Source: Iphione sp. A-MEVVRFRX5
Lineage: Eukaryota
Reading direction: 5' to 3'
Assembly: GCA_976226885.1 (NCBI GenBank)
Contig: OZ320321.1
Span: 56,296,001 to 56,360,000 of the forward strand
DNA: 64,000 nucleotides
Shown: in pieces, positions 3,888 to 61,299 of the stretch
Layout of the letters: the number at the start of each line of letters is the position of its first letter
Numbering within the stretch: the stretch's first letter is position 1
Translations under genes and position numbers: made by a program
The notes under the pieces: model-generated
The model's database searches: none
Told to the model about the DNA's origin: nothing
Seen by the model: only the letters and a program-made list of their open reading frames with translations

Positions 3888-4311
3888 TATGTGGAAACAC
3901 TTGGATGTCCAGCCCACAATTCAAGAACAAGAAATAGATCAAGTCTATAGGATCGGTGTACCTACACCCTTTCATCAAACATTGTGGGTGGGGAAGTGAT
4001 GGAAGCTTTCGTGTAAACCAGTCCATTGTAGGTCCAGGCCGAATGGAGTTTGCCCTCCTTGATCATTTTTCTTGCCTTGAAAAATAGGTTCCTGATACTC
4101 TCGGACAGATCCTCATTTATATAAATGTTCTTTTGGAATTTTCTGAGGTTAGCTCTCTTGATGTAAAGGTATGTGCTTTGTGGACTGATTGACAAAGGTA
4201 ACCACAAGTGGCCTAATTTCTCTCTGGTAGGGTGTAGGTACACCGATCCTATAGACTTGATCTATTTCTTGTTCTTGAATTGTGGGCTGGACATGCAAGT
4301 GTTTCCACATA
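3888..4311. repeat. 83-bp inverted repeat (3888-3970 vs 4229-4311)
   Basis: 3888-3970 is the reverse complement of 4229-4311 with one mismatch (ttggatgtcc vs ttgcatgtcc). Confidence 0.95.
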
Positions 4312-29125: not shown

Positions 29126-29725
29126 GCCTGGGCATTGGTGCTGTTGGTGTGGGAGGCAGCCTGAAAACCCCCTTGTACCCGTCGGCCTGGGGCGGCATCG
29201 TTACGGTTTGGGTGGGGGCGTATCTGGTCGGGGCGACCTTGTGGGCCTTCTGTCGCAGGTGGTCGGTTCATGGCATTTAAAGTGGGCCAGACATTGTTTG
29301 CTGCTGTCGTGGGCATCAGGGATGGTGGCGGTGGGGGAGGGGGTTGGAGTTGGGCCGGTTGCATCATGGGTGGTGCTAGGAGGGCTTGTGGGGCGGTTGT
29401 GGTTGGGGGATACTGTGGGGGTTGGGAGGAGGCATCTAATATCTTCGAATAGGGCAGGGTCGGGCTGGCGTTGGATGAGAAAGTCAGTGCGTTTCTCGAG
29501 TTGCGCCTGAAGGGTAGCCCTCTCCCGTTCAACCTGTTCATAGAGTCTTTCCTTGCTTAGCTCGAAGTATGGGCAACCGGCTTCTCGCATCAGGTTGCCC
29601 ACGGTTTCAAGCACTCTGAGAGCTCCCTCTCGGTCGATGGCCGCTCTCTGGATCAGCCCATCCGCGACACAGTGTTGAACGCCATACGCGGATCGCTGTC
29701 GGTTGTAGCCGATGTCTCTCAGCAT
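28957..29725 (-). CDS. Putative Penelope upstream ORF1 (helical N-terminus, Pro/Arg/Asn-rich body) spread over two frames
   Basis: ORF 29201-29725 has a helical-looking start; overlapping ORF 28957-29541 ends WTLTRREKELIKAFRQQDPQ; both lie directly upstream of the RT ORF. Confidence 0.5.
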
Positions 29726-30249
29726 GTCGGGGTCTCTCGCGTAAAAATTTAATTAAAGATTTACATTACTTCCTGTTACAGTGAATATCCTATTTCACAC
29801 TCCAAGAAGGCCTATCCAGAAATGGTAGATATCTATCCTGAATATCCGTAACCCTGTCTATGTACCTAACTTAGGTCAAATAAATCTGAGTGTATATATA
29901 TACATGTACTTCACCATTGATTCCGTTTCATGATGGTGTACAGATGTCTTGTCCCTCAGATTTGGCACCCCTAAAATTGAGAGGTTCAGTGTTTGCATCA
30001 TTTTGAAAGGAATTGAATAGAAATTTATTTTATTTGCTTCTCATTGAGGTACACAATAAGTTCTTCCAGCGAATACAACATGATGAAATAAGTATAGGGA
30101 CAAAGTAATGAAGGTAAAGAAAAAATGAATATACTGAATACGAATTTACATTTAAACTAGACAACGAGATTAAATGTCATGTTAGACAGTTAGGTACGAC
30201 ATTATACAGTAAGACAAGTTAGTATGACGTGAGTCAATATTAGCTAATA

Positions 30250-36686: not shown

Positions 36687-36996
36687 TGTTGGAGCCACTG
36701 CGTGGCTGCGGCACCGCGGCACGCCAGAGGTGCTGCGGCACAGTGGACCGGACAGGCGGGGTGCAGCGGCACGCCCCCGTGCGGCACTCGAAGGGGTGCT
36801 GCGGAGTTTGAGGGGACGGTACCCGGATGCTGAAGAGACTGGGGGTGGGTATATAAGGGAGTTGGCCCACCTGGGCAGTTCAGATTACCTTTGGTACTCA
36901 CGGTTGGTGCTTACTGCTTGTGCCTTTATCGTTCTTATCGAATAAACCTCTTTATCTTAACTGGAGTCATGTCTTACTTACGGAGCGGACGCTACA
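36687..36996 (+). repeat. 5' LTR (310 bp)
   Basis: Matches 46649-46958 except A36980/G46942; TATATAA at 36850-36856; AATAAA at 36941-36946. Confidence 0.98.
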
Positions 36997-38414
36997 TTGG
37001 TGGCAGCGGTGGGATGGAGGAATTACCCACAGGTGCGCCGCGACCGCGAGGACGAGGGACGCGCCCTGCTCCCCGGGGAGGACGCATGGGACGTACCATT
37101 CCCCATGAGCGGTCCCCCACGAGAGGAGACTCCAGCACTGAGGACGAGGAGGTGCGGCTCGGGGCGCATCGTGTGCCGCGGGGCCGCAGCACCCCCCTGC
37201 GCCGCGGCACCCGACCGTGCCGCAGCACCCCATCGTGCCGCAGCGGCACAGCATTGTCCGACGAGGACCATTCGTCGAGCCGCAGCAGCAGTGAGGATTC
37301 TTCTGTGCCCAGCAGGGTCGGCTCGCCCCGTGGGAGGGGCAGTGATGACGCCACACCTGGAACCCCCACCGGGGTAGGAGGACAGGCAGGTGGGACGGCG
37401 AACCCCCGCGACCCCGCTACCCCGGCCCCCCCGCCGCCAGCGGCCCCGCCAGCCGGCCCTTCCCCGCCCAACCCGAGCCCGGCCGGGGGCGGACAAGGAA
37501 ATGCTGTACAGCTGATGCGGGGACTGATGGATGAGATCCAGTCCGCTCTCCGGCCCGCCCCCCCGGCGCCCCCGACGCGCCGGTTCCATGTTAAGCCGGA
37601 ACCCTTCAGTGGAGGAGTCCCCCTTGCAGAGTATCTGCATCACTTCTCCCTGGTGGCCCGGGCCAACCGATGGGATGAAGCGGAACAGGCGCTGCAACTC
37701 AGCGTGTGCCTCAGGGGCTCGGCGCAGTCCGCCCTCCGCTCAGCCAATGTGGATGTGTCCGCGGAGGGGGCGTTCTCGACCATTGTCGAAACCCTGCGAC
37801 AGAGGTTCCAGTCGGAGGATCGGGCCCAGTATTATGAGCAGGAATTAAAACAGCGTCGCCAGAAGAAGGACGAGGACGTCCAGAAATTAGCCGAGGAAAT
37901 CGAGAGGCTGGTACGGCAGGCCTACCCCGAGGCCGAGGGCTCCTGGCTGGATCGAATGTGCAAGGACGCCTTCGTCTCGGCCCTCTGCGAAGAGCGTTGC
38001 CGGAGGTGGGTCGTGCAAGCTAAAGCTCGGTCCTTTCAGGCAGCCATCTCGGAGGCGCTCTTGGCCGAGTCGTACCACCGCGCCGAGAAGGAGCGCAGCC
38101 CGGGGGCTGGGGCGACGCGGGTCCATGCGGCACAGGCTGAATCTCAAGAGGTGGCGGCCGCCAGCCATGACGCCAAGACGACAACCGGATTGGAGCGCAT
38201 TGAGCAACTCCTGGCCAAGCTACTAGAACAGCCCGCGACCGCCGCTTCCCCCGTTAGGCGGGGCGGAAAGCGCGCGAGCAACGAAGGATGCTTTTATTGC
38301 AAGGAGCCCGGGCACTTCAAGCGGGACTGCCCGGTGCGGAAGGCGGCCGAGAGTGTCGCTGAAGTTGCTCCGTCGCAGCCGGAAAACGAGAAGCCGCCCG
38401 CCCCGGCTCAGTAG
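36969..38414 (+). CDS. gag: Gag (capsid domain plus CCHC zinc knuckle)
   Basis: KPEPFSG...YLHHF...ANRW...LRGSA capsid-like region; CFYCKEPGHFKRDC knuckle. First ATG after the TATA box is 36969; an alternative in-frame ATG is at 37014. Confidence 0.9.
   Translation: MSYLRSGRYIGGSGGMEELPTGAPRPRGRGTRPAPRGGRMGRTIPHERSPTRGDSSTEDEEVRLGAHRVPRGRSTPLRRGTRPCRSTPSCRSGTALSDEDHSSSRSSSEDSSVPSRVGSPRGRGSDDATPGTPTGVGGQAGGTANPRDPATPAPPPPAAPPAGPSPPNPSPAGGGQGNAVQLMRGLMDEIQSALRPAPPAPPTRRFHVKPEPFSGGVPLAEYLHHFSLVARANRWDEAEQALQLSVCLRGSAQSALRSANVDVSAEGAFSTIVETLRQRFQSEDRAQYYEQELKQRRQKKDEDVQKLAEEIERLVRQAYPEAEGSWLDRMCKDAFVSALCEERCRRWVVQAKARSFQAAISEALLAESYHRAEKERSPGAGATRVHAAQAESQEVAAASHDAKTTTGLERIEQLLAKLLEQPATAASPVRRGGKRASNEGCFYCKEPGHFKRDCPVRKAAESVAEVAPSQPENEKPPAPAQ
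36998..37015 (+). promoter_or_regulatory. Primer-binding site, tRNA-Leu
   Basis: TGGTGGCAGCGGTGGGAT, 1 nt after the LTR, is complementary to the 3' end (AUCCCACCGCUGCCA-CCA) of animal tRNA-Leu(AAG/UAG). Confidence 0.9.
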
Positions 38415-39346
38415 GGCGGGCGGCGTCCGATTCCGTACCCTCCGGCCTGGGACCCCCCTTGGAGGCGATGGTCGCCGCCATCGAGGGGGAGACCAGGAGG
38501 GTACTGCAAGGAAGGAGGAGGACGGGGTGCCGGGGAGTACTGTTAGAAGGAGAAGTTGGCGGACAGGTGGTGGACTGGCTGGTGGACACAGCGGCCTCCG
38601 CTTCCCTCCTCTCGGCACGGTCCTACCGAGAACTACAGGGGGTGTCGTTGAACCCGGCGGGGGCACAAGTCTTCGGGGTGGACGGCAGCGCCCTACAAGT
38701 GTTGGGGCTGGTGGATTGCGAAGTTCGGTTCGCAGGGGCCACTCTACGGGTGGTGGCTATCGTGGTAGAGATGGAGATACCGGGCCTACTTGGTTTGGAC
38801 TGGCTGGATCGGTGGGCGGCCACAGTGGATACGAGGGAAGCCACAGTCACTGTTTGTCCCGGCCACCGCGAATGGGCGGCCACCCTGCGAGCCAGCGGCA
38901 GCCAAGAGATTCCTGCAGGAGGAATAGGCTGGGTTCAAGCGAAGGCGTGTCAAGGAGGGGTCGACTCTTTGGAAGGGTTGACAGAGGCTAACGCCCAGTT
39001 CGAGTCACGCTCGGGACTACGAGTGGCGCGCGCGCTGGTACGACCCCAGGAGGGGAGGGTGTGGGTTCCAGTGTGGAATCCCGGCCCCCAGGTGACACGA
39101 GTCTTCGAGGGAACCCGGCTGGCCGAGCTCAGCCGGGTCGCCGCAGTGCTTGGACCACCCGAGGCCCCCCGGGAGCAGGTAGAGGCAGAACAAGAGCAAG
39201 CGGTAGAATACTTGCTAGGGCAATTGCCGGTAGAGACCACCGACTCAGAGCGGCAGCAGATAGCGGCCATGCTACGGTGCCATCGCGAGGTCTTCCAGAC
39301 AGCCAGTGGCCCGCTCGGGCGTACCCCGGAAGTCCGACATCGCTAG
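38363..39346 (+). CDS. Aspartic protease plus dUTPase-like spacer domain (5' part of pol)
   Basis: WLVDTAAS (DTG-like site, D at 38585); GLLGLDWL; then a beta-rich V-W-N-P-G...GT-R-LA-E-L region; ends GRTPEVRHR*. Confidence 0.85.
   Translation, partial: SCSVAAGKREAARPGSVGRAASDSVPSGLGPPLEAMVAAIEGETRRVLQGRRRTGCRGVLLEGEVGGQVVDWLVDTAASASLLSARSYRELQGVSLNPAGAQVFGVDGSALQVLGLVDCEVRFAGATLRVVAIVVEMEIPGLLGLDWLDRWAATVDTREATVTVCPGHREWAATLRASGSQEIPAGGIGWVQAKACQGGVDSLEGLTEANAQFESRSGLRVARALVRPQEGRVWVPVWNPGPQVTRVFEGTRLAELSRVAAVLGPPEAPREQVEAEQEQAVEYLLGQLPVETTDSERQQIAAMLRCHREVFQTASGPLGRTPEVRHR
38381..38424 (+). promoter_or_regulatory. Putative -1 ribosomal frameshift signal (G_GAA_AAC plus GC stem-loop)
   Basis: Heptamer at 38381-38387; 5-nt spacer; perfect 11-bp stem 38393-38403/38414-38424. 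The pro frame is -1 to gag and open from 38363. Confidence 0.75.
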
Positions 39347-41930
39347 GCGCCTCCCCCCTCACAAGAGGGAGGCAGTTCGCGCGGAGGTAGACAAGATGGT
39401 GCAGAAGGGGGTGCTGGAGCCCTCCACAAGCCCGTGGGCATCCCCGCTGGTGCTCGTACAGAAGAAGGATGGGGGACTGCGGTTTTGTATCGACTATCGC
39501 AAACTCAACGCCATCACCAAGAAAGATGCGTTCCCCCTCCCTCGGATAGACGACACCCTCGATGCTCTACAGGGCAGCCAGTACTTTTCCGCGATCGACC
39601 TGGCCAGCGGCTACTGGCAGGTCGAGATGGAGCCGGCGGACGCGGAGAAGACGGCGGTGTGCACCCCGAACGGCCTTTACCAGTTCCGGGTAATGCCGTT
39701 CGGCCTCTGTAACGCGCCCTCCACCTTTGAGCGGCTTATGGAGTCCGTGCTGCGGGGCCTCGTGGGCACCGAGTGCTTAGTGTATCTCGACGACGTGATC
39801 GTCCTGGGCCGCTCGGTGGAGGAGATGTGCACTCGACTAGGCACGGTATTCCAGAGGCTGAGGGAGGCTGGACTCCGCGTCAAAGCATCCAAGTGCCAAC
39901 TATTCCAACGAGAGGTGGCATACCTGGGCCATCGGGTTTCGGCGGAAGGAGTGGGAGTCGACCCAGAGAAGATCAGGGCCGTCTCGCGATGGCCCCGCCC
40001 CCGGTGCGTAGCAGAACTTCGAAGCTTTCTAGGACTCTGCTCGTACTACCGCAGCTTTGTGGAGGGGTTTGCCACCCTGGCGGCACCCCTGCATGCCCTG
40101 GCTGGAGCGGAACAGGAGTTTCGGTGGTCCCCCGCCTGTCAAGAAGCCTTCGAGCAACTGAAGGCCCGGCTGTCCACTACCCCCATCCTGGGTTACCCGA
40201 CACCCGTGGGACAGCTGCTCCTGGATACCGATGCTTCGGACACCGGCATCGGTGCGGTGTTGTCCCAGTTGCAGGAGGGGCGCGAGCGGGTGCTGGCCTA
40301 CGCCAGTCGCACACTGACTCGCCCAGAACGGAACTATTGCGTTACGAGGAAAGAACTCCTGGCGGTGGTGTTCGCCCTCCGGAAGTTTAGATGCTATGTG
40401 GGGGGGAGAGCCATTGACATCCGCACCGACCACGATTCCTTGCGCTGGCTGTGCAACTTCCACGAACCACAGGGTCAGCTGGCCAGGTGGCTGGAGGAGA
40501 TCTTCTGTCACGACCTTCGGATCACGCACCGGCCAGGGAAGCGCCATGGTAACGCCGACGGACTATCACGGCAAGAATGCAAGCAGTGCGGCCGGCGAGA
40601 TCTGGAGTCCGAGAGTGCGGCGGCGGTAGGCATCGCCGGAGTAGAGGGCGGCCCCGACGTGTGCCAGATGCAGAGGATGGAACCGGCAACAGCCGAGCTC
40701 ATCCAAGCGCTAGAGGGAGGGGGGCCCCCCCCTGGGCTGCGGGCTGGACTGACCTGGGAGGAAAGACAGCTCAGAGCGGAAGGCCCGAGACTCGAGCTCC
40801 GATCGGGAGCACTGGTGCGCCTCTGGGAAGAGGAAGACCGGCAGAGGCTCCCCCAGACCTACGTCCCCCGGGCCATACGGAAGAGCCTCTGGCAGGAGAC
40901 CCATGCAGGCCCAGTGGGTGGCCACCTTGGTCCGGAGAAGACTGGAGCAGCGCTGCGCCGGCGCTGGTTCTGGCCCGGGATGTCGCGCGACGTCGCACGC
41001 TGGTCACAGTGCTGTCAGGCATGCCAACAAAGGAAAGGGCCAGGGAGGCGCCACCGGGCCCACCTGCAAGGACGCCCTGTGTCGGAGCCGTGGGAAGTGC
41101 TGGCGGCCGACATTTTGGGGCCACTGCCTGTGACGGAGAGAGGAAACAGGTATATCCTGGTAGTGGCCGACCACTTCTCGAAGTGGACAGAGGCGTTCCC
41201 TTTGGAGGAGGCCACCGCGGCGGCCACCGCCGACATCATCGTTAGGGAAGTGGTCTGCCGTTTCGGACCTCCACGGGTACTCCATTCGGACCAGGGCCGT
41301 AACTTCGAGGCGGCACTGTTCGTGGAAGTACTACGACTCCTCGGGATAGAGAAATCCCGAACCACCCCTTACCACCCTCAGAGTGATGGGGTGGTCGAGC
41401 AATTTAATCGCACCTTGGGGAACATGCTGGGCACGCTGGCTGAGGAGCGTCGGAAGGACTGGGACCAAGCCCTGCCGTTCGTGATGGCCGCCTACCGGGC
41501 CACCCCCCACAACGCTACGGGGGAATCACCGAACCAGACGCTGCTGCATCGAGAGGTGACACTGCTGGTGGAACTACGCTATGGTGGCCCGGCCCCACCC
41601 CTGGTGGATCGTGGGGAGTACGCAAACCGGATAGCGGAAGAGGTCCGCCGAGCGCATGAGAAGGTGGCGGAGAAATTGAGTCGTGTGGCCGAACAGCAGA
41701 AGGACTGGTATAACCGAGGGGTGAGACACCAACGGTACGCCGAGGGTGACCGAGTCTGGCTTTTCACCCCGGCTCGCAAGAAAGGGATCTCCCCGAAGCT
41801 GCAGAGCTGGTGGGAGGGGCCTTGGACCGTGGTAAAGGCGTTGTCCGAAGTGGTGTACCGAGTTAGTCGGGGACATCGGCAGAGAGTGGTCCATGCTGAT
41901 CGCCTGAAGATCGCCCATCTCGACCCCCAG
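39339..41930 (+). CDS. pol: Pol: reverse transcriptase, RNase H, integrase (part of ORF 39306-46475)
   Basis: SPWASPLVLVQKKDGGLRFCIDYRKLN; YLDD (39783-39794); DTDAS; HHCC finger; DILGP, HSDQG and GVVE core; WEGPW motif. Confidence 0.97.
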
Positions 41931-44900
41931 GTGACGTGCGGCGTTCAAGGAGCCGCAGCGGCACAGGACGAGGGGCAGCGGATTCGAGAAGAAGCCGCAG
42001 GGCCGCTCGGCCTTACCATGACGATAGAGGGCGCCGCAGCCGCATCTCTGCATATAAGAGGCAGCGCGCTGGGGCCCGTCCCGCCGACCGCAATACCGCG
42101 TGATTCGACCGCTAGTCTCCAGGCGGCGCCAGGGGAGCCGCAGGAAGTTGCACCCGAGCGACACCACACGATCCACAGCGTCGTGATCTACGCCACACGT
42201 GTCGAGCGCCAGCCGGACGCACTTACACCCGCTAACCAGAAAATATCGACCCAGGGCCGCTGCGACAAGGAGGAAGCCGCTGCCACTCAGCGTCTGTTTT
42301 CAACGAGGGACTCGCCGCAGCAGCACGAGGTGAGGAATCCACCATTGGTAGCCGCACATATGGGCGATAACCGGGGTAACGGGAGAAAGCCGCGTTGGGT
42401 GAGCGGCGAAGGTCGTGATGCACCCTTGTTTTTCGATGAAGTGTGTGATAAACCTGTCGCCGCTGCGGAGGGAACTACCTGGAACCGTTACTCTCACGGG
42501 TACCTTTCTTCCGCAGCTCGACTGGCGTGCCGCGCAGGGGTGGACTGTAGCCGCACCATTCCCCTCCGACGCAGTGGCCGCAGGCTCGCCCGCTCCAGTG
42601 GGGTTGACGTGCCCCTGCCGCTGTGCGGCAATCTGACGGACGCAGCGCCGCGGCCCGGGTGCCGGGACGCTGCCGCGGCATCACCAGGCGACACCCAGCA
42701 ACAAGAGGATCGCCGCAGTACCGCGCCCAGCCACCCACGCGGGGAGATCCACGACGCCGCAGAGGCCGACCTTGCCGCGCCAGGGCCGATCCAGACCCGC
42801 AGTGCCGCTGCGGCCCTCGCTGTTCCGCCACCGGGCGGCCGTGCGGATCGCGCCTCGCCAGGGCCGCATCGCCGCAGCGACGACATGGCAGATGTACCTG
42901 AGGACGTCCCCCCGCCCAGCGCTGAGAGCAACGACTCAGAGTCTTCTGGCGAAGAGGAGCCAAGTGCCCCAGAGGAACGCCGTCACCGTTGCTCTCGTTG
43001 TGCGTCTACCTTCGCACAGCCATCCAACCTGCGCCGCCACCTGAAAGACGTGCATGCGCCGGAGGGGTTGGGCTGGTTGTGCCCCGACCCCGAGTGTGAG
43101 CAGCAAGCCTTCCACCGGCGCACCGACTGGAAGCGACACCTGAACGGGGTGCACGAGCCCAACGACTGGGCCCTGACGGTGGATCTCCAGTACTTGCGGT
43201 TCTGGGGCCTCAACCCCACCTACGGGGAACCGCGGCTCTGCCCGGCCGACAAGATGGAGATGTTGCAGCGAGCCCGGGCCCGGGAAAAGAAGAGCCGGGA
43301 GAAGGAGGTGCGCCGGGCAGCGGGCCGACTTCCGACGCAGAGGGGGGCCTCCAAGCGGGGTGGTAAGAAAAGAGGGCGCTCCGCTACGCCGGAGGAAGGC
43401 AGCGACAGCCGAGCAGAGGGACCGCCCGCGACGACCCCAGGGGCTGCAACCCAGCTGCAGCAGGAGCCCGACGCCGGTCAGTCAGCCGAGCAGCCAGAGG
43501 ACCAAGCAGGGCCTCCACCAGTGCAGCCGTCGACGTCTACTGGCACGTCGACCCCGTCGGGCCCCCGAGCCATCGGGGGGACGCGGAGGGCCCGACGGCG
43601 ACGGGGAGCGTCCACCCGTCAGAGGAGAGATCCCCCTCCCAGTTCGTCGGAGGAAAGTGCTCTACTGTCCGCTCGGGCGCCAGGGGTGGTATCCCGGACG
43701 GTGTCGTCGGGCCCGCCGGGTGAGGAGGAGACCATGGCCGGGGATGCCGATCAGAGTGGGAGTAGCTGCGCCGGACCCCCCCCACCGCCCGCAACCACCA
43801 GAGCGCCGGAACCGGATAGGGGGGCACCGCCGCGCCCTCCGGGCGCTGAGGGTGCCACTGTTGCCCTGGAGGGGCGAGGGACTGACCTCCCCGCGGGTGC
43901 CCCACACCGAGGACCGCAAACCCCACCGGGTCCCCCGCCTAGTAGTAGTTCGGGCCGGGACTCTTCCACCGACGAGGCGCGGCGCTTGGTGAAGGAGTGG
44001 GCTGCCAGCGCCCTGCGCGGAGAAGGGGCTGACCGTCGCGCCCCGGGGCCTCCAGCGTCGACTATGCCCGATCTTCCGCCAGACAGTGAGAGAGGAGGGT
44101 CCGACGTCTCCGGTCAGACGTCAGACCGCGGCACGGGGACTCCCGACGAGGCGGGGGATGGTGACACTCCTTCCACGGCCGAGCCCTCGCCCCAGGAAGC
44201 ACTAGGCCAGTGCACTGGCTCTACGGGAGCCGCGACAGGAGACAGCCAGGGCAGTGGAGGATCGGGACCACCGCCCCGCCTAGACCAGCGGCTGGCGACT
44301 CGCACGTATGCGAGGTCGCACCGCCCTCCCCCCCAGGAAGAAGGAGGACGGGACGCCCCCCCACCGCAGCCAGAGGTAGCCACGCCCGACACTATAGACC
44401 TGCCTGCAGGGGCGTTGCACTACAAGGGACGCAGGCTGTTCCTGGACTCGGCCAGCCAGACGTCAACGGATGAACCTCCCCCGCAGCTGCGGGTGGTCCT
44501 CCCCCGGGCGTCGACCGTGGAGCCGAGGAGCGAGGGACTGCCCGGACTCGCCGGTGCGGCGGGGACTCGCCAGGTGGGAGTACGGGCGACGTTTAGGGCC
44601 TCCCCCGCGGCTCGGTCGGCCGGATTGTCACCCCCCTGTCGCCTCCCTGGCATGGGCAGGGGTGCCCCCGGCCGCCGAGGAGAGCCCAGGCCGGGAACCC
44701 CGATGGGAGCGCCATCGTGGGAGGAAGAGGAGAGTCGGCTGGACGAACGCCTAGGCGTAGGTTGGGAACGGCCGGTGGAGGGCGACGTGGTGGACCTTGT
44801 GACACCGCCCGGGTCCGTTGCGCCATCGCCGGCCAAGAGGCCGAGATTGAAGGGAGCCGCGGGGGCCGACCCAGCTGGGGAGCCCTTGACCGCGGGCCCG

Positions 44901-46475
44901 GCCGGGGCACACGGGTCCTCGAGTGAAGGACAGACCCTCGGCGATGACGGTGAAGAGGACCAGGAGCTGGCGACTCTCTTCGAAGAGGAATCCTCGGAAG
45001 AGGAGCCGGAACCTCCCCCCGACGACATGGCCTCGCGCCCGCGCGGCTCACCTGCGCCTGACACCGCTCCCAGGGGTCCTCAGCCGGCCATGCCCACCGA
45101 ACCGAGGGCTCCTCCGGGGCCCAACGGCGCAGACGCAGCCGGAACCGCAGCAAGATCTCCGAAGAGCCTGTCGCCGGCAGCGGTCCCAACGTCAGTAGCG
45201 CGAAAGGAGGCAGAGACGGAGAAGGGTCCAGATGGCGGCGTGAGACCCAACCCTACTGCCGCCGAGGGGGCCGGCCCGACGTCCGACCCCACGACCAGTT
45301 CAGCCGCCGAGCCAACCGTCGCAGAGACGCCAGCGGAGAGCCCGCGGGGCATGCCCACCACCCTGGGGCGGGGAGGCGAGGAGGCGACGTCGGGCCCAGG
45401 GCGGGCACACGAACCCAGCGGGCCGACGGGGGACGAGGTGGCCACAACGGGGGAGGTTGAGTTAGCCACCAGCCCCGCCGCCAACCCCACCGCAGACCCG
45501 ACCCCCGGGGGATTACCGACTGAAGGGCGACGAGAAGACGCTACCGAGGGGACGACGAGTCCAGAGCGGCCTGGAGAGCCGAGGGACCCGGCGGAGGGGG
45601 GGCATCGCCCCCCTCCACTTCATCTCCAGCTGTTGCCGCAGCCCTCGCGAGGGAGAGGGAACTGGTCCGCAGGACGGACGCGGGGCAAAAGCATGTCCCC
45701 AGTGCCAGGGACAACTCGACCAGAAGGGCCCCGCCGGAAGCAGGGCGGAGCCGGCGTGCCTGTGACGGCTGGAGGGGGCACGGAGGGCCGCGGTCGAGGG
45801 CCCCTTTTCGCGTCCACCCCAAGAACCCCCGGAGGCGAGGGAAGAGCGAGCCCTCGCGGAGTGGCCCCCGTCAGACCTTGGGAGGACCCGACAACAACAG
45901 CTGTGCCAGGAGGGCGTCCGCGCGGGCCGACACCGGGCCCTGGCCGCGGAGCACGCCCCCCGTCGGGCCCCTCCCTGGTGCTGGGACCACCGGCGCTCCC
46001 CGGTCCAGAGGGGTGGGGGACACGGCCACGCTTCCCCCCGGGCCCGTCCGCTCCTCCCAGCGTACCTTGGCCGGGCCGGCCAACCCCCGGAACAGGAGCA
46101 CCATTACAGGATGTGTCGGGTTCGTCGGGAGCGGAAGAGGAGGTTCCGGCCGCCGTATACGTCTGGGCGGCATCACGCTTGGTGTCGCCTGAGTCTACCC
46201 TACCACCCGGGTGGATGATTATCTCCAACTCCTCGGCACTGGACGTGCAGGTGCTTACCGCCGGACAGGTGAAAGTCGTCCTCCGGCAGACCGTCACGTT
46301 CCGACGGCTCGGGGTGCCGGTCCCAGGCAGCGAGCTGGCCACGTGGTATGCCAACTACGGGACGGTGCTAACTCGGGGCCGTCCAGTGCGGCTCCTGTCC
46401 ACGTGGCGGGAGGAGCCCACCGCCGGGGGTAATGTGGAAGTTCACATCCACGAGTCATGGACAGTTTATCTGTGA
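41931..46475 (+). CDS. Uncharacterised ORF3 fused in frame to integrase: 2x C2H2 zinc finger, long disordered region, unknown C-terminal domain
   Basis: 1514 codons without a stop after integrase. CSRC...HLKDVH and CPDPEC...HLNGVH at 42990-43154; strong-context ATG at 42885; no signal peptide or TM helix visible. Confidence 0.85.
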   Translation: MTCGVQGAAAAQDEGQRIREEAAGPLGLTMTIEGAAAASLHIRGSALGPVPPTAIPRDSTASLQAAPGEPQEVAPERHHTIHSVVIYATRVERQPDALTPANQKISTQGRCDKEEAAATQRLFSTRDSPQQHEVRNPPLVAAHMGDNRGNGRKPRWVSGEGRDAPLFFDEVCDKPVAAAEGTTWNRYSHGYLSSAARLACRAGVDCSRTIPLRRSGRRLARSSGVDVPLPLCGNLTDAAPRPGCRDAAAASPGDTQQQEDRRSTAPSHPRGEIHDAAEADLAAPGPIQTRSAAAALAVPPPGGRADRASPGPHRRSDDMADVPEDVPPPSAESNDSESSGEEEPSAPEERRHRCSRCASTFAQPSNLRRHLKDVHAPEGLGWLCPDPECEQQAFHRRTDWKRHLNGVHEPNDWALTVDLQYLRFWGLNPTYGEPRLCPADKMEMLQRARAREKKSREKEVRRAAGRLPTQRGASKRGGKKRGRSATPEEGSDSRAEGPPATTPGAATQLQQEPDAGQSAEQPEDQAGPPPVQPSTSTGTSTPSGPRAIGGTRRARRRRGASTRQRRDPPPSSSEESALLSARAPGVVSRTVSSGPPGEEETMAGDADQSGSSCAGPPPPPATTRAPEPDRGAPPRPPGAEGATVALEGRGTDLPAGAPHRGPQTPPGPPPSSSSGRDSSTDEARRLVKEWAASALRGEGADRRAPGPPASTMPDLPPDSERGGSDVSGQTSDRGTGTPDEAGDGDTPSTAEPSPQEALGQCTGSTGAATGDSQGSGGSGPPPRLDQRLATRTYARSHRPPPQEEGGRDAPPPQPEVATPDTIDLPAGALHYKGRRLFLDSASQTSTDEPPPQLRVVLPRASTVEPRSEGLPGLAGAAGTRQVGVRATFRASPAARSAGLSPPCRLPGMGRGAPGRRGEPRPGTPMGAPSWEEEESRLDERLGVGWERPVEGDVVDLVTPPGSVAPSPAKRPRLKGAAGADPAGEPLTAGPAGAHGSSSEGQTLGDDGEEDQELATLFEEESSEEEPEPPPDDMASRPRGSPAPDTAPRGPQPAMPTEPRAPPGPNGADAAGTAARSPKSLSPAAVPTSVARKEAETEKGPDGGVRPNPTAAEGAGPTSDPTTSSAAEPTVAETPAESPRGMPTTLGRGGEEATSGPGRAHEPSGPTGDEVATTGEVELATSPAANPTADPTPGGLPTEGRREDATEGTTSPERPGEPRDPAEGGHRPPPLHLQLLPQPSRGRGNWSAGRTRGKSMSPVPGTTRPEGPRRKQGGAGVPVTAGGGTEGRGRGPLFASTPRTPGGEGRASPRGVAPVRPWEDPTTTAVPGGRPRGPTPGPGRGARPPSGPSLVLGPPALPGPEGWGTRPRFPPGPSAPPSVPWPGRPTPGTGAPLQDVSGSSGAEEEVPAAVYVWAASRLVSPESTLPPGWMIISNSSALDVQVLTAGQVKVVLRQTVTFRRLGVPVPGSELATWYANYGTVLTRGRPVRLLSTWREEPTAGGNVEVHIHESWTVYL

Positions 46476-46635
46476 TCCTGAGAAGCGGATATAGCTGACG
46501 ATCGGACTGTCCCTGGATTCGCGACATTACGTGATTGTGTCACCGGACTTGAACGCAGACCGCCCCCGGACTCGAGCATGTTGTCTAGTTACAGTTACGG
46601 TTGGGGAGTGAGTTGCTTGGGGACAAGCAACCTCT

Positions 46636-46645
46636 AAGGGGAGGG
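46636..46645 (+). promoter_or_regulatory. Polypurine tract
   Basis: AAGGGGAGGG, 3 nt before the 3' LTR. Confidence 0.85.
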
Positions 46646-46648
46646 TAA

Positions 46649-46958
46649 TGTTGGAGCCACTGCGTGGCTGCGGCACCGCGGCACGCCAGAGGTGCTGCGG
46701 CACAGTGGACCGGACAGGCGGGGTGCAGCGGCACGCCCCCGTGCGGCACTCGAAGGGGTGCTGCGGAGTTTGAGGGGACGGTACCCGGATGCTGAAGAGA
46801 CTGGGGGTGGGTATATAAGGGAGTTGGCCCACCTGGGCAGTTCAGATTACCTTTGGTACTCACGGTTGGTGCTTACTGCTTGTGCCTTTATCGTTCTTAT
46901 CGAATAAACCTCTTTATCTTAACTGGAGTCATGTCTTACTTGCGGAGCGGACGCTACA
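46649..46958 (+). repeat. 3' LTR (310 bp)
   Basis: Direct repeat of the 5' LTR; TG...CA termini. Confidence 0.98.
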
Positions 46959-48622: not shown

Positions 48623-49273
48623 GTGCAGTCTCCACACCCACTCACTGAAAAGATATCTGAGAAATTTAGCAAAACATTCTCACTTTTATATTGATTTATC
48701 ATGCACCAAACTATGATTGAAATTGTGGATATTTGCATGATGATAACAATCCCAGGCGTTCAATATGAACTCCCGTATCCATTTGGTTCATTTTTAGTGA
48801 ACATACGTAAGAATGCTCTGTCCAACTCATATCAAATTTTGGAATTAACACTCAGTAACCATGGAGAGCCAGTCACATGACCTGTAAAATCCTCAACAAT
48901 GGGCATGTTCACATATGATTTAGACATATGACTACAAATATGTCCTAAATATTTAAATAACTAATGAATTACTTTTATTTTACCAAAGTCGTTTCCACTA
49001 TCCGAGGGTTTTTTCCCTACAGCTTATCACAAGTGTTCAACGAATCATTAGTGGGAACAATATTGAAAGTATGTCATTTGATGTCCTATAACCATGTTTA
49101 TCAAGGCTTTAAATTAGAGGCAGTTCTTACATATTATTTTCTGTTTACTATTCAACTCTCCAAAGTGTAAACATCCATTGTTCTTCCCAAACTGTCCTGA
49201 TTTCGGATGTGTCTGCTGTCTAGATCATGAGCAGCATGATTATGATAAGTGAGTAGACTTATGACAGGCTACA

Positions 49274-49400
49274 ATCCTAAAAGTGCTGAATTTGATGAGT
49301 AAAAATCCTAAAAGGCTGAATTTGACAAGTAACAGTCGTAAAAGTTCTGAATTTGATGAGTAAAAGTCTGAAAGAACTGAATTTGATGAGGAAAAGTGCC
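49274..49400. repeat. ~30-bp tandem repeat, 4 copies
   Basis: ctgaatttga at 49286, 49316, 49347 and 49377. Confidence 0.9.
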
Positions 49401-55306: not shown

Positions 55307-55786
55307 TATCCTAATGATTTTATCATTAAAACTATAGTGGTGGAAACTTAGATGTTTTTTGAACAGTGTGGAAAAAACATAGACCGTTTAGAAGAAAACT
55401 GGATGATTGTCATGAAATAGGGGAATTGCCGATGAACCACAATAATATGGAATGTACGAGTTTAGCTCAGATGGCAGGAGCGTGGCTTGCCTAATCCATG
55501 TGCATGGCGTTTGAACCTTTGGAACAGCTGAGCAAAACACACCAAAGGATACATCCAACTCCAAACCAGCTTGCCTGAGGCTATGGCCAGCATATGATCC
55601 TGTTCTCTTGCACAACAGACCTACTAAGAAGTAAGAGTAGAGGCCGACCCTGGAGTCTCATCAACAGTAGACGAGTATACTATCCAACGATAACATGGGA
55701 GAGCAGCTTGGAGAGAGCCGAAAGTTCGAGGGAGGCTGGTGTATTTTTTTTTGAATTGAACATGTTTATTCTGGAACTTATACATA

Positions 55787-56401
55787 TTGGGTTGGCCAAT
55801 ACGTGTTAATTATTATCCTGGCGCAACAATTAACACTCTTACAGAAGAAATATTGGCGCAGAATTTGTCACCAACACCCTCTATTATAGTTATCTTGATT
55901 GGAGGAAATGACTTGACGCAGAAACACATGTCGAAAAGGAATGATGGCAGTTATGTACGGTATATACTCCCCAACTATTTGTCTGACAGTGACGCTGTCG
56001 AGGATATAGGCAGAAAACTACGTGTGATGCGCTATCATGTCCAGGAGAAATTTCCTGCCAGTTCTGTAATGCTGTGTACTATATTTGCCAGAAGCTACAA
56101 TGAAATGAATTGGAGGATGAATGGGAGTGACCCAAACACCGAGCTGGGTGGACGTATCGAAAGGATGATTATATCGGCAGTGCACAGTATAAATCAAGTA
56201 ATTACCAACATTAACTTGATACATGGGATACCGACTCCGAGAGTACATACTGTGTTACATTCGAGATTCCGTGGTCGTTGGAGAGACAGATTGACACGTT
56301 TGAGGGATGGCTGTCATCTCAGAACGAAATGGAAGTCCTACTTGGTGCGATATGTGATTGATGGTATACGGCGTCTTTATAGACAGTTGTATAATGTGTA
56401 G
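55787..56401 (+). CDS. SGNH/GDSL esterase-like domain (LINE ORF1), block I disrupted
   Basis: Block II YPGAT, block III IGGNDL, block V RDGCH; the expected DS block position coincides with an in-frame TGA at 55757. Confidence 0.75.
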   Translation: MGWPIRVNYYPGATINTLTEEILAQNLSPTPSIIVILIGGNDLTQKHMSKRNDGSYVRYILPNYLSDSDAVEDIGRKLRVMRYHVQEKFPASSVMLCTIFARSYNEMNWRMNGSDPNTELGGRIERMIISAVHSINQVITNINLIHGIPTPRVHTVLHSRFRGRWRDRLTRLRDGCHLRTKWKSYLVRYVIDGIRRLYRQLYNV

Positions 56402-57126
56402 ATGAAGAATTACTCCTGAAGACCTGAGGAGTCGTATGATGATGGTCCTGTGGTGAGTGATGGTGACAAGAACTGGACTCATTATAATTGGCTATATAGG
56501 TGTCACATTGCATTTGAAGGTCCTTGACCTTTAAGTGGTGATGTATATGGATTAGGGGTCAGGATTTGCCTATAATCCTAATTCTATACAGGTCTTTGAC
56601 CTGTTAGGCATTATTGACACTGATAGTAATCGCTGTGTTTAAGTTGCTGTACCAGTCCTATTTGTACCGGTGTGAGCACTTTTCATTTTATGAATATGTA
56701 CTTGTTTAGGTCCTTGACCTGCAGGTGTGTATGTAATGTAAATATTATATACATTGAAGATTGGTATGTTGACTTTCGTAATTAAGAAGTAGATACATCT
56801 TTAACATAAGGAGTTCGACTAGTATGTAGCCAAGTAGAGTAAATTTAAGGTAATATTGAATACACATAAATTTGTATTAATGTGTAATATGTGGCTTGTT
56901 AAAACTGGTATGTACTATAATGAAGATTAACTCCTCTTGTTTCTCGTTGAATGATCCAAATTGTTCGTCTTTTTGATGCCATTAACATTAGCCGCGGGCT
57001 TAGGATACCTAGGCTCGTTGCTTTTCATATTTTTCATTAATTTAGGAACTCTGAAGGGAAAGTATGGACGTGGCACTGACTGTTTACGATATGGAGAAGA
57101 GATTAATTATAAGGTAATGTAGGTAA

Positions 57127-60100
57127 ATGATATCCCTGTATTATTTAAATGTTTGTTCGATACAGAGGAAGTTGGACGAAATTTCAGTTATGATGAGTCG
57201 TTATAAGATGGACTGTTTAATCCTGTCTGAAACTTGGTTGCATGACAGATACCCCGATACGCTATTGGCAAAACGAGGATATAACTTTTATAGGTAGGAC
57301 AGACACTATGGTAGGGGGGGAGGTATTTTATTCTACTTTGCTAGTAACCTAACTGGAGTATTTACTGTAATGGAGGATCTGAAAGTAGTAAACAGAGATA
57401 TTGAACTTATCTGGTTGAAGATAAATATAAGAAATAGAGTGACAATTATGGTATGCTCTCTATACAGACCCCCACATGGGAATCTTGAAGCAGCTTTAGA
57501 TATATTATCGGAGCATATGGATAGAATTCGCAATAGACATCCGAAATGTAAGTTGATGTTGGTAGGGGATTTTAATGTGAATTGGCTAGTGCATAACAGG
57601 GAAAGAGATACATTAATGGATCTGGCTGTACGCTATGATCTGTATCAACTGGTAAAGGCGAGCACTAGAATTACTGCCAGATCAGAAACAATGATTGATC
57701 TAGTGTTATCTGATTTAAATAATAGTGATATTCTTGTAGATGTAATTGGCTATACAGTTAGTGATCACAATTTGTTAGAAATGATATTGTCATTTGACAA
57801 TGTAAAAAGATATACCAAAGTGAGATATCGGGATTGGAAAAGGGTTACGTTAGAGAATCTAAGGGTAGAGCTGGGCAAGTTTAACTGGACTAGTATAGCT
57901 TGGATAAATAATATACAGGGCAAGTGGGACTTAGTGGAACAGGTATTTTCTGAAGTGATAAATCGTATCTCACCGCTGAAAGAAAAAAAGTGTGTTGCAA
58001 AGTCTCCATGTTGGATGACAGGGAAAGTGAATCAGTTAGTTGAAGAAAGAGATCGAGCTCTCCGTAGGTATAGGAAAAGTGGAGGTGAATATGATAAGCT
58101 AATTCTGAGATTGGCTAAATATAAAGTTAGGAAGGAACTTAGAAAATCAAGGAGGGACTACATAGAAAGAGCTGCCTTACTAAATGCAGATAATCCTAGT
58201 CGGTATTGGAGATTTTTACCGTTAGAATTAGGAATGAAGGCGCAAGGGTCAAACCCACAACTAGTAAATGAGGTGGGTGATGTTTTGTCAGATCAGGAGA
58301 TGGCAAGTAAAATGAATAAATACTATGTCACCATTGTTAGGGATATGATATCAGGGATTCAGGACTGCCAAGTGGCCTTTCCACTGGAGGAATTGGTTGA
58401 GAATAGGGATCAATTGGCATTAGAGCAGTTTACAGTAGAAGAATGGTGTACGGCCATTGCCGACCTGAAAGGTAATAAGGCTTCTAAATTCTTAGACATG
58501 CCGATAAAGCTATTCAAAGATGTATTTGTAGATCTGACTCTAGAGCTATTACCTATTTATAATGAAAGTTTACTAACAGGTGAACTACCAAGGCAGTGGA
58601 AATCAGCTACCATTGTGCCGATACATAAAGGAGGAAGTATAAATGACATGAAGAATTTCAGACCTGTGAGTTTGTTACCTGCGACAGTAAAAATAATGGA
58701 GAAGATGATAAATAAACGTATACATGATTATCTTGAAGGCAAGGAACTTAGAAAATCAAGGAGGGACTACATAGAAAGAGCTGCCTTACTAAATGCAGAT
58801 AATCCTAGTCGGTATTGGAGATTTTTACCGTTAGAATTAGGAATGAAGGCGCAAGGGTCAAACCCACAACTAGTAAATGAGGTGGGTGATGTTTTGTCAG
58901 ATCAGGAGATGGCAAGTAAAATGAATAAATACTATGTCACCATTGTTAGGGATATGATATCAGGGATTCAGGACTGCCAAGTGGCCTTTCCACTGGAGGA
59001 ATTGGTTGAGAATAGGGATCAATTGGCATTAGAGCAGTTTACAGTAGAAGAATGGTGTACGGCCATTGCCGACCTGAAAGGTAATAAGGCTTCTAAATTC
59101 TTAGACATGCCGATAAAGCTATTCAAAGATGTATTTGTAGATCTGACTCTAGAGCTATTACCTATTTATAATGAAAGTTTACTAACAGGTGAACTACCAA
59201 GGCAGTGGAAATCAGCTACCATTGTGCCGATACATAAAGGAGGAAGTATAAATGACATGAAGAATTTCAGACCTGTGAGTTTGTTACCTGCGACAGTAAA
59301 AATAATGGAGAAGATGATAAATAAACGTATACATGATTATCTTGAAGATAATGAGCTCTTTTGTAATGAACAATATGGTTTTCGGAGGGGGCGGGGTACA
59401 GAGATGGCCTGCGGTAAGTTACTAGACTATATGAATGGCTATTTGAATGATAAATACTATGTTGCATTATGTTTCATAGATTTTTCAAAAGCCTTTGATT
59501 CGGTAGATCATTTAATTTTGCTGCAGAAGATGAGTTGTATTGGGTTGAAAAATTTAACATATTGGATGAAAGCCTATTTGGCTAATAGGAGTCAGCAGGT
59601 AAATATTGGTGATAGTTACTCGGATTTTGAAACACTGTTAACCGGGGTACCACAAGGCTCAATCTTGGGCCCTACTTTGTTTTTGATTTACATTAATGAC
59701 TTCCCCAGAATCATGAATGATGTCGATTGTTTGATCTACGCAGATGATATTGTACTTATAGCACATGATAAAGATGGAGAAGCGGTGAAGAAAAAGTTGG
59801 AGTGCACTATGAAAAGTGTGATGCTATGGTCCCAGCAAAATAAGATCCTACTGAATGTGAATAAGACGAAGATTATGCTACCGACTTACCATGAAATGCA
59901 ACCATGTACGTCAATGAAGGTAGGAGATGTTAAGTTTGATGTTGTCACCAAGTATAAATATTTAGGGGTAACCATTGATGCAAGATTAACCTGGGTACCG
60001 TTTATGAAGGAAATAATAAGGAAAGGATACCACAAGTATGGTCTATTATGTAGAGTAAAACCATACGTTAATACCCGAATTATGAAGAAATTGGTATTAA

Positions 60101-60558
60101 CAATGGTATTACCAATGATTGAGTATGGTTGTTTCGTGATTCCGCCATTGAAAGGACAGGTACCACAAAAGATAGTGACACTGAGGAGACGATTGTACTC
60201 GCTGTTTCTGGGTAGAGGCTCTTTGGAACGTGAGGATATTGCGGAGGAATTACAGGGGATTGCAACTGTGGCGAGGCTACGAATATTGTATTTAAATACT
60301 ATAGTGCCCGCGTCACGAGATCTACCAAATGTTACTTGTGTGGGTAGGTTAGAATATAAAGAAACAAGAATTCGAATTATTCCAAATAGACCTAATTATG
60401 AGAAGTTCAGAAGGTCATGTTATTACTTAGGATGCCTAAGTTGGATGAAACTAACAGGGGAGATAACTAAACTGAACTTATCTGGTTTTAAACTGTATCT
60501 GAAGAAAAGAAGGAGAGATGTTAGAATTGTATTGTATGATGACGATATAAATGGGTAA
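57127..60558 (+). pseudogene. LINE ORF2 (APE endonuclease + RT) with one nonsense codon (TAG 57295-57297) and an internal duplication
   Basis: YLNVCS, LSETWL, LYRPP, VGDFN, SDHN; FIDFSKAFD, QGSILGP, YADD; ATG 57127 is in frame with ORF 57370-60558. Confidence 0.93.
58132..59347 (+). repeat. 609-bp-period in-frame tandem duplication inside ORF2
   Basis: 58132-58738 equals 58741-59347 by eye with no mismatch seen; 2-nt junction gc; 203 aa repeated. Confidence 0.97.
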
Positions 60559-61299
60559 TGCAGTAGAATTGTCCAGGTCCTTGACATGGAAATTCGTTGC
60601 TGCTTTAAACACATGACTCACTAGTAAGTAGGGTCCTTGACCCGACTGAAACAGGCTAAGGTCCTTGACCTTACAGTAAAAGGCTGCTCCGTAGTGTTTT
60701 TGTATAGAATAATAATATGACTCACTGCTCTTAACCATAATGATATATGACAAGGTCCTTGACCTTGACATAGGATGTTTCTATGTAATGTCTTTTAATT
60801 TAAATTGTTAATTGTGGGATAATATGTCATGGTATAACTTCAGCAATGAGGGAGGGATTGTGCATTATTTTAGCTCAATACATTGCAAGCTAGTTATGTG
60901 AAGTTACAACAGTACAGTGCCTGTCCATACTGGTCTATATCGGTTTATTGGTTTAGCATTAACTACATTATTACCATCTAAGTGTTGTATTGTACATATC
61001 ATCTTTCTGAACGCTATGTACCTACCCAAAAGTGTATAAGCTCAGAATAAATCATCTGTTAAATCAAAAATATTAAATAGTATTTTTGTCCAGGGTGATA
61101 AATATGAAATGTGACAATTGATGATATGTTTGATAGTAGTATAGCTAAGTATGTTAATAACACTAAAGATAGTTTTGGATGATATCCAATCTATCTTTAC
61201 TTCTTTATATATAGCGGTGCCATCAGTTTATTTTCCACTTTTCCGACTGACGTAGCCTCTTCTCTTCATTCATGGTTTCCAATATAATCTGTAAATCTG

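Follow-up and report, generated by a model that had tools for sequence, protein, structure and literature searches.

An element with an open frame beyond integrase

The window, a stretch of 64,000 nucleotides from contig OZ320321.1 of Iphione sp. A-MEVVRFRX5, contains an LTR retrotransposon with the following features:

36687..36996, + strand: 5' LTR (TG...CA), whose U3 has repeated TGCGGC(A) motifs, a TATA box and a poly(A) signal
36969..38414, + strand: gag, 481 aa, with a CCHC knuckle
36998..37015, + strand: primer binding site (PBS), identical across all families and presumably of tRNA-Leu type
38363..39346, + strand: protease part of pol; a frameshift, private to the present copy, splits it from RT
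38381..38426, + strand: predicted -1 frameshift site GGAAAAC, then a GC-rich hairpin, conserved in six families
39348..41930, + strand: RT, RNase H and integrase parts of pol, with a p58/GPY-F-type C-terminal domain (Pfam; dN/dS 0.06-0.08)
46636..46645, + strand: polypurine tract (PPT)
46649..46958, + strand: 3' LTR

The TG...CA LTRs, PBS, PPT, short target duplication and order of gag followed by PR-RT-RH-IN identify a Ty3/Gypsy (Metaviridae) LTR retrotransposon, with nearest outside proteins 56-63% identical over RT-RH in a tree of unnamed or generically named proteins. The LTRs differ by one mismatch in 310 bases and are flanked by the target duplication ATAT. The first ATG of gag lies inside the LTR and the gag frame, which has a dN/dS of 0.15, passes through the PBS.

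A single frame is open from 39264 to 46475, and its part from 41931 to 46472 comprises exactly the 1,514 codons that the first-pass annotation had counted past the integrase. Over the length of the element, the other two frames have 67 and 75 stops versus 18, and therefore the openness is not due to chance. The frame had been described as open up to the PPT; it is indeed long, but its stop codon lies ~160 nt upstream of that tract. The integrase, placed as ending near 41930, likely continues with a tail of its own for ~155 codons more. Pfam detected no chromodomain (none at E<=1), MBD or env domain, and an errantivirus-type third ORF with signal peptide and transmembrane (TM) helix was not encountered.

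Domains and conservation of the tail

The C-terminal tail of this frame encodes the following:

42885..46475, + strand: predicted accessory protein (1,196 aa) whose likely start is the first ATG past the predicted splice acceptor
42990..43304, + strand: two C2H2 fingers (helices QPSNLRRH and RRTDWKRH) with a conserved beta-hairpin and basic helix; dN/dS 0.06
44301..44441, + strand: short motifs RTYAR (12/12 tails) and RRLF (10/12), resembling PDS5-binding and cyclin-docking motifs; leads only
44739..44846, + strand: LDxRLGxxW block (11/12), SIM-like hydrophobic patch and SP-basic NLS-like motif
46110..46472, + strand: C-terminal alpha/beta domain; dN/dS 0.08, pLDDT 90.2

The earlier proposal of two C2H2 fingers holds, with finger 1 starting at 42990 and finger 2 ending at 43154. 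Pfam zf-C2H2 matches lie under the cut-off (E 2.7e-4, 172-aa piece), all eight zinc ligands are invariant in the 13 aligned copies (five families), and AlphaFold predicts two finger folds with a pLDDT of 86.8. The ligands follow the C-x2-4-C-x12-H-x3-5-H pattern of a C2H2 pair within a beta-beta-alpha fold; the loop of finger 2 is longer than classical and the inter-finger linker is not of the TGEKP type. Their closest structural neighbours are DNA-binding finger pairs, with weak scores (Z 4-4.8). A finger profile search returned seven matches, all generic multi-finger proteins, and a metagenome scan with this profile returned 0 of 185 candidates.

The globular-looking terminus noted earlier corresponds to the predicted alpha/beta domain. 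No homologue of this domain outside the lineage was found among 659 candidates of 1306-4157 aa, and a search over 1.84 billion proteins gave a single match, a spurious repeat protein; nor was the domain detectable in the outside protein P0109. A weak match to a lipase was rejected. An Atlas comparison gave an SH3-like best score of 0.86, a lead only, and the best match to a phage tail-terminator (gpU-like) fold reached Z 7.2 (rmsd 4.0, 98 aligned, 4% identity; Foldseek E>0.001). Structure-neighbour lists pointed to no clear family for either the fingers or the C-terminal domain. On these searches the tail contributes a selected domain without a known homologue.

Fingers and C-terminal domain (dN/dS 0.06 and 0.08) are by this measure constrained as strongly as RT and integrase (0.08 and 0.06). 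Among siblings of this copy, 39 retain the Pol-fused tail, as do five further families of the same genome; the 15 extra loci in this sample were picked mostly for long open frames. Between families, the tail domains are 35-61% identical, and RT and tail trees are congruent. New stops shared among copies number 0 against 8.3 expected in the linker (41931..42884) and 0 against 32.9 expected in the accessory frame (42885..46475), all three shared linker indels are in frame, and the Pol-tail frame is uninterrupted across the six families. A fragment captured from the host, carried along functionless and open through youth and high GC, would fit the low-complexity middle of the tail, where dN/dS reaches 0.65, and the GC content of ~70%, which lowers stop frequency in the region. 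However, the constraint on both domains, the purging of stops and the congruent trees refute this explanation, which we regard as extremely improbable.

These patterns indicate that the tail is maintained by long-term selection. Its description in the first-pass annotation as intact in a very young copy understates that selection, and pol in this very copy is broken by a deletion, private to it, that shifts the frame between protease and RT. The same annotation's view of an element-encoded accessory protein is supported by selection and by sharing among six families: the region stays open in sibling copies with dN/dS far below 1, is not a one-off capture, and matches no described family.

The pattern of stops and indels further indicates that read-through from Pol is itself kept by selection, alongside a probable separate protein. 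This retention would also be expected if the tail acted chiefly within the particle, extending the C-terminus of integrase and, in the manner of chromodomain or MBD fusions, tethering integration to chromatin by way of a DNA motif, nucleosome or cohesin/PDS5. The outside proteins P0109, P0125, P0120 and P0126 likewise carry Pol-zinc-finger fusions, and the motif [RKH]TY[AEG][RK], present in 12/12 tails versus 0.02 in shuffled sequences, resembles the PDS5-binding motif of haspin (PMC12264150). However, the repeat core of the LTR is not enriched in the 3' flanks of 35 copies (0.70 versus 0.77 per kb), flank GC is host-like, target sites are ordinary AT-rich 4-mers, and a tether could do without an intron, a TATA box or an ATG of its own. 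We therefore consider tethering as the main role unlikely.

As the first-pass annotation had it, the tail contains neither a signal peptide nor a TM helix, with a hydrophobicity maximum of 1.06 (19-residue Kyte-Doolittle). Its NLS-like, SIM-like and cyclin-motif-like blocks are conserved, and Arg-rich stretches accompany acidic and Pro-rich disordered tracts. The accessory protein is very probably nuclear.

Promoter-like signals, predicted splice sites and repeats

Between the integrase and the predicted accessory start codon lie:

41931..42884, + strand: dual-use linker, with the Pol frame open and promoter-like and splice signals inside
42053..42058, + strand: TATA box of a predicted internal promoter (TATAA in 35/40 family copies)
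42330..42516, + strand: predicted intron of 187 nt, with donor GAG/GTGAGG, branch-like CTCAC, pyrimidine tract and acceptor CAG/

In all 17 elements from six families, which share ancestry, the top-scoring donor (phase 0) and acceptor (phase 1) of the linker take ranks 1-3 within the whole 4.7-8.2 kb frame, on scores from generic weights that are not host-trained. The sites are intact in 36/40 (donor) and 38/40 (acceptor) copies. A TATA-like sequence lies upstream of the donor in 8/17 elements, with none in 9/17; TATAA is unique in the whole frame and within the linker in five of eight elements checked. A CTCF-like site upstream of the TATA box, present in 12-14/14 in most families, is a lead only, since control windows score equally. 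Splicing from a phase-compatible donor just inside gag may occur, but that donor is not conserved between families.

The ATG at 42885 is present in 40/40 copies. Of the 17 elements, 16 have a first ATG past the best acceptor that reads in the finger frame; an out-of-frame ATG comes first in copy L072. The ATG at 42885 is preceded by 368 nt without any ATG, although such ATG-free stretches from acceptor to start are individually weak (P 0.05-1.0 per family). A start at ATG 42360 inside the intron was rejected, being kept in four families and missing in two, and consequently the conservation at 'SDN/GDN' more likely reflects a DNA motif, CGATAA. The strongest donor and acceptor, the frequent TATA, the U3 hexamers and the in-frame ATG 42885 in the linker make a separate nuclear protein of ~1,200 residues likely. 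That such a protein is made seems to us well supported by these sequence signals, and we lean, with less assurance, toward an internal promoter in the linker. The '~1500-aa' protein described earlier therefore matches the tail frame, but the accessory protein is probably the shorter product from ATG 42885.

The predicted intron is also coding sequence: it encodes the RKPRW motif (42384-42398), which likely ends the integrase tail, and its coded part has a dN/dS of 0.11. One stretch is thus predicted to serve as integrase tail, promoter and intron. The 21 codons directly past the acceptor, which would be 5' leader in the short form, are selected as protein (dN/dS 0.08), and therefore the fused form, or a longer one, is of consequence as well.

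Intron-less copies were absent among the 40 listed of 45 candidates, which suggests that unspliced RNA is favoured. A strong predicted intron retained in genomic RNA would suit a Rev/CERV-like factor, made from the spliced message, that binds element RNA and lets unspliced genomic RNA avoid splicing and exit the nucleus. The Arg-rich stretches and the presence of repeats in transcribed parts (linker and 3' U3) fit such a factor, as does the like layout of Cer1, with pol lacking a stop, a 3' ORF and a spliced nuclear protein (PMC10309623). Against it, the finger helices have canonical DNA-contact residues and DNA-binding pairs as structural neighbours, the repeats are concentrated immediately upstream of TATA boxes, and no sequence likeness to CERV is apparent; we judge an RNA factor unlikely, on a par with a tether.

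The hexamer TGCGGC is common to U3 and the linker, with 17.2 and 8.6 per kb, respectively, versus 0.7 in pol and 1.2 in the tail. The finger recognition code (Q-1,N3,R6; R-1,D3,R6) predicts GCG-GAA, which is 5/6 bases of GCGGCA. In the sole family with an altered finger-1 helix, TGCGGC is lost from U3 (0.0) and the linker (0.7) and GTGCA is repeated instead. This co-change is a single event, and finger 2 is unchanged in that family, which counts against a simple code. The repeats could instead be sites for host factors.

A protein that binds the repeats might also repress, limiting copy number or timing activity to a cell-cycle window. The SIM-like and cyclin-docking-like motifs would go with repression or cell-cycle control no less than with activation. 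However, the disordered tracts, acidic and Pro-rich, are in keeping with an activator, and several families have many young copies, leaving repression the less probable outcome by a clear distance, below even the tether and the RNA factor.

A possible self-encoded regulator and its precedents

Our best explanation, held tentatively, is that the two-finger protein is both fused to Pol and made alone, from spliced RNA off an internal promoter, and would bind the repeats of its LTR and of the internal promoter, activating the element or keeping it unsilenced. In this model the internal transcript would start near 42080, be spliced from 42329 to 42517 and be translated from 42885. Full-length RNA would stay unspliced and yield Gag-Pol with the tail attached, carrying the regulator into the particle and on to the new insertion. 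Binding of the protein to repeats of the TGCGGC(A) type, with activation in a positive loop as with foamy-virus Tas, is plausible by analogy but falls slightly short of an even prospect. The first-pass annotation left tether, transactivator and anti-silencing factor open; a nuclear regulator expressed on its own now has the better support, ahead of a purely integrase-tethering role. More speculatively, and in our view doubtfully, the element may represent an independently evolved complex-retrovirus circuit in an invertebrate Gypsy lineage, in which an internal-promoter C2H2 transactivator, also fused to integrase, co-evolves with LTR sites and uses short motifs to dock on cohesin/PDS5, cyclins and SUMO.

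LTR retrotransposons of animals are generally considered dependent on the host's transcription factors, and C2H2 proteins have been known chiefly as a means by which hosts fight retrotransposons. If true, the model would provide a directly testable element-run transcription loop, or counter-silencing, outside retroviruses. The lineage offers a self-encoded finger protein, matching promoter repeats and a natural variant in which finger and repeat changed together.

Literature searches turned up no comparable architecture; Cer1 CERV and Oikopleura Tor come closest. Tas of foamy viruses is not known to be fused to Pol or to be a C2H2 protein. The likeness lies in predicted logic only, a promoter near the 3' end producing a nuclear protein that acts on the LTR and internal promoter (PMC7828637); unlike the present element, foamy viruses belong to Retroviridae and have env. 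Chromoviruses and CopiaMBD also have a chromatin- or DNA-reading domain within the Pol polyprotein, but these domains are small, single and for targeting, without their own promoter, intron or start codon (PMC12440569, PMC6673714).

Errantiviruses, env-carrying Ty3/Gypsy elements that include annelid ones, have a third coding unit at the same position with a splice acceptor before it (PMC13524379). Their Env features are absent here, and 'zinc' and 'C2H2' do not occur in the main text of that paper. Oikopleura Tor3b/4b are likewise Gypsy-type, and an internal promoter, located within pol or after it, drives their third gene; that gene encodes a membrane Env, whereas the present protein is nuclear-type and without a TM helix (PMC4402516). 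Cer1 of C. elegans, also Ty3/Gypsy, is similar in having a large non-env ORF, CERV, that follows pol, precedes the 3' LTR and belongs to the polyprotein frame, and the present 3' ORF is also in frame with pol without a stop. CERV is in addition made from spliced mRNA, is nuclear and regulates Cer1; it has 517 aa, gag-frame exons and a C4-type Cys loop, and exports RNA (PMC10309623). The present tail is set apart from CERV by two C2H2 fingers, a new C-terminal fold, a length of ~1,200 aa and a predicted internal promoter.

The window element and its open frame

The element under study and the parts of its tail (the open frame behind integrase) lie at the following window coordinates.

36687-46958: full-length LTR retrotransposon, Gypsy-type; 310-nt LTRs with 1 mismatch, TSD ATAT, PBS and PPT present
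41931-46475: tail
41931-42884: linker, the first 318 tail codons, with a predicted intron at 42330-42516
42885: ATG of the predicted accessory protein
42990-43154: two C2H2 fingers (conserved finger domain to 43304)
46110-46472: C-terminal domain, separated from the fingers by a disordered middle

Pfam domains follow the Gypsy order, with gag and its CCHC knuckle, protease, RT, RNase H, and integrase, whose C-terminal domain is p58-type, and a slippery site and hairpin at the gag/pol border predict -1 frameshifting. As the first-pass annotation had claimed, the frame continues past integrase for 1,514 further codons without a stop; domain search places two C2H2 fingers in this tail, and no hydrophobic segment was found there, in agreement with the claimed lack of a signal peptide or TM helix. 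The accessory protein had also been called intact in a very young copy, and the tail is indeed open, but a deletion private to this copy shifts the frame between protease and RT. A single frame of 2,715-2,742 codons from protease to tail end is preserved in 5 of 39 siblings (same-family copies elsewhere in the Iphione genome). The first ATG of gag lies inside the LTR, with its frame running out of the LTR and across the primer binding site (36969-37015), and the gag start MS[YWF]..RxG[RK]xYIGGSGG is conserved in all six elements shown (the window element, L066, L068, L070, L074 and L077). Locus L040 has a doubled 3' LTR, while L032 and L054 have internal deletions, yet retain both LTRs and the finger region.

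Elsewhere in the window, RT and GIY-YIG-like frames broken by stops (26408-29752, minus strand) belong to what we take to be a Penelope-like element. The interval 55760-62712 holds LINE-type RT frames at 57298-60558, with a 609-nt tandem duplication inside, and at 61411-62712, preceded on the 5' side by an esterase-like ORF (55760-56401). Inverted repeats of 83 nt, 99% complementary and 258 nt apart, form a MITE-like feature at 3888-4311, and minisatellite-like repeats occur at 2092-2713 and 49262-49383 (units of 21/43 nt and 30 nt). In the host genome, short cox1-like pieces at G000:C4:89642397-89642808 are likely a nuclear mitochondrial insertion, the mitochondrial gene order is nad3-nad2-cox1-cox2-cox3 on a single strand, and the telomere repeat is TTAGGG. 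Gene order and telomere repeat together point to an annelid as the likely host.

Selection on the tail and its inheritance

A DNA search of the genome gave 40 matches listed among 79 candidates, and all 39 besides the window copy were fetched. From variants common to at least two copies (36-40 copies per region), dN/dS is far below 1 in the tail domains, at 0.06 for the fingers and 0.08 for the last 114 codons; it is 0.08 for RT-RH and 0.06 for integrase. The disordered middle lies at 0.24-0.65 and the first 318 tail codons at 0.49-0.68. Private variants gave values closer to 1. Stops and indels were counted in 30 copies, after removal of 10 of the 40 that have large deletions or insertions. 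In the first 318 tail codons, where 8.3 shared new stops would be expected, none was seen; the other two frames have 8 and 13, and all three shared indels are in frame. Beyond them, shared new stops again number 0, against 32.9 expected, and four of seven shared indel calls are single-base, two of these being an adjacent insertion-deletion pair. Siblings do not generally stop just after integrase: among the 34 with a recognised integrase end, the frame is open to the fingers in 25 and to the end in 9, and L022 is an additional sibling open to the end. In-frame tandem repeat expansions lengthen the linker or tail by up to 280 codons in L070-L072, L068 and L060, with the frame unbroken.

Queries of the genome with the C-terminal domain and, separately, integrase (150 candidates scored in each) were followed by retrieval of 35 additional loci, picked mainly for long open frames. 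In a set of 15 of these loci, all matched the finger profile and 14 the C-terminal profile (frames of at least 300 aa). Twelve representatives fall into six families, with between-family identities of 81-84% in RT-RH and 35-61% in the two tail domains. Their RT-RH and tail trees have identical groups and an identical deep split, which indicates that tail and RT were inherited together from a common ancestor; the presence of the tail in six families with congruent trees argues against a one-off captured host fragment. The finding is real, lineage-wide and strongly selected.

The linker, the fingers and a predicted regulatory circuit

The linker appears from its sequence to combine three roles, as coding region, predicted intron and predicted promoter. 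The only parts alignable across families before the fingers fall on a splice donor, a branch-like site, a pyrimidine tract and an acceptor. Of 40 copies in the window family, 36 have an intact donor, 38 an intact acceptor and all 40 the ATG at 42885. Scored with generic weights that may not be the host's, the top donor of the linker is in phase 0 and its top acceptor in phase 1 in each of 17 elements, and both rank 1-3 of the whole frame in 17/17. In 16 elements the first ATG past that acceptor shares the frame of the fingers, and the 17th conforms once the homologous acceptor is taken; in L072, outside this set, the first ATG is out of frame. All predicted introns have a length of 1 modulo 3, so that a spliced full-length RNA would terminate Pol within 1-39 codons, but the open frame dictates this constancy, which is hence no independent evidence.

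In 35 of 40 window-family copies, a TATA box is found 280 nt 5' of the donor; across elements, TATA-like sequence is present in 8 of 17 and absent in 9. The hexamer TGCGGC occurs 17.2 times per kb in U3 and 8.6 in the linker, against 0.7 for pol and 1.2 for the tail, and a second count gave similar densities. For the intron-coded part dN/dS is 0.11, and for the 21 codons 3' of the acceptor it is 0.08. The first 133 linker codons, which are promoter-like, are indistinguishable from neutral (0.74-0.82), yet lack stops. By eye, RKPRW in the predicted intron resembles the basic R-x-P-x-W/R motif that terminates integrase in tail-less relatives, and therefore integrase's own tail likely extends to it, with the ancestral stop lost. 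Near the intron start, a GATA-like CGATAA (42363-42369 and homologous sites) is kept in nearly all families, even those without the adjacent ATG. In several families a CTCF-like 14-mer (42021-42034) sits ~30 nt 5' of the internal TATA box; it is no more than a lead, as control windows score no lower.

AlphaFold predicts folded fingers with an extra hairpin and basic helix (pLDDT 86.8), whose structural neighbours, all weak, are DNA-binding finger pairs. The R-x-x-D-x-x-R of finger 2 is kept in nearly all copies, and the C2H2 recognition code, as we assume it, predicts the site GCG-GAA, matching 5/6 bases of the U3 repeat. One family has an acidic finger 1 helix, and its U3 lacks TGCGGC and repeats GTGCA instead (37.5 per kb against 6.3). 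This apparent match between finger and repeat changes is only suggestive because finger 2 is unchanged in that family.

Two forms are most likely made. A short message would start at the internal promoter and be spliced to encode a nuclear protein of 1,196 aa, and Gag-Pol carrying the tail would come from genomic RNA left unspliced. The protein is predicted to bind repeats common to the LTR and internal promoter, raising transcription. That the tail serves integration targeting only seems improbable, since 35 insertion flanks have no enrichment of the repeat. By analogy with CERV, the nuclear 3' protein of the Cer1 element, the tail could instead act in RNA export, a less likely option that we retain because the 40 copies listed include none without the intron. 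The regulatory model for this accessory gene is specific and testable.

Comparison with known proteins and elements

In the disordered middle, the motif [RKH]TY[AEG][RK] occurs in 12/12 tails (0.02 in shuffles), LDxRLGxxW in 11 (0), an RxLF-type motif in 10 (0.55) and a strict SIM pattern in 6 (2.1). Cyclin, SIM and NLS are tentative labels for short motifs there. The terminal domain, previously described as globular-looking, has a confident AlphaFold fold (pLDDT 90.2); sequence searches found no homologue, and its fold is weakly like phage tail terminators (Z 7.2, rmsd 4.0, 98 aligned).

Among the papers listed in literature searches, none describes a Gypsy element whose integrase is followed by a C2H2 accessory protein; Repbase, Dfam, GyDB, supplements and subscription journals may hold unremarked examples. 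The word 'zinc' was not found in the accessible text of two annelid LTR surveys (PMC8556966, PMC8220671) or of an errantivirus survey (PMC13524379). The architecture, not recognised as a described one in the first-pass annotation, likewise has no match among the papers listed, and a Gypsy accessory gene of this type is apparently undescribed. [RKH]TY[AEG][RK] is similar to motifs through which haspin, Wapl and ATRX bind PDS5 (PMC12264150).

Outside this genome, we compared 120 listed of 2,348 long Pol proteins (at least 1,493 aa, a length favouring fusions). P0109, among those listed, has a tail of 1,186 aa, and the finger profile matches the finger pair in it (E 2.5e-12); P0125 (11 members) looks similar in layout by eye. 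In P0120 and P0126, a shorter finger tail directly follows the integrase end motif, the protein running on past this motif into M-x-K-T-T-P-R and a Cys/His finger pair; close relatives end at the motif, and fused and unfused states may coexist in this clade. Neither the C-terminal domain nor the short motifs were found in these four proteins. Where measured, outside RTs are 58-63% identical, and a single origin for the outside fusions and the Iphione lineage is possible.
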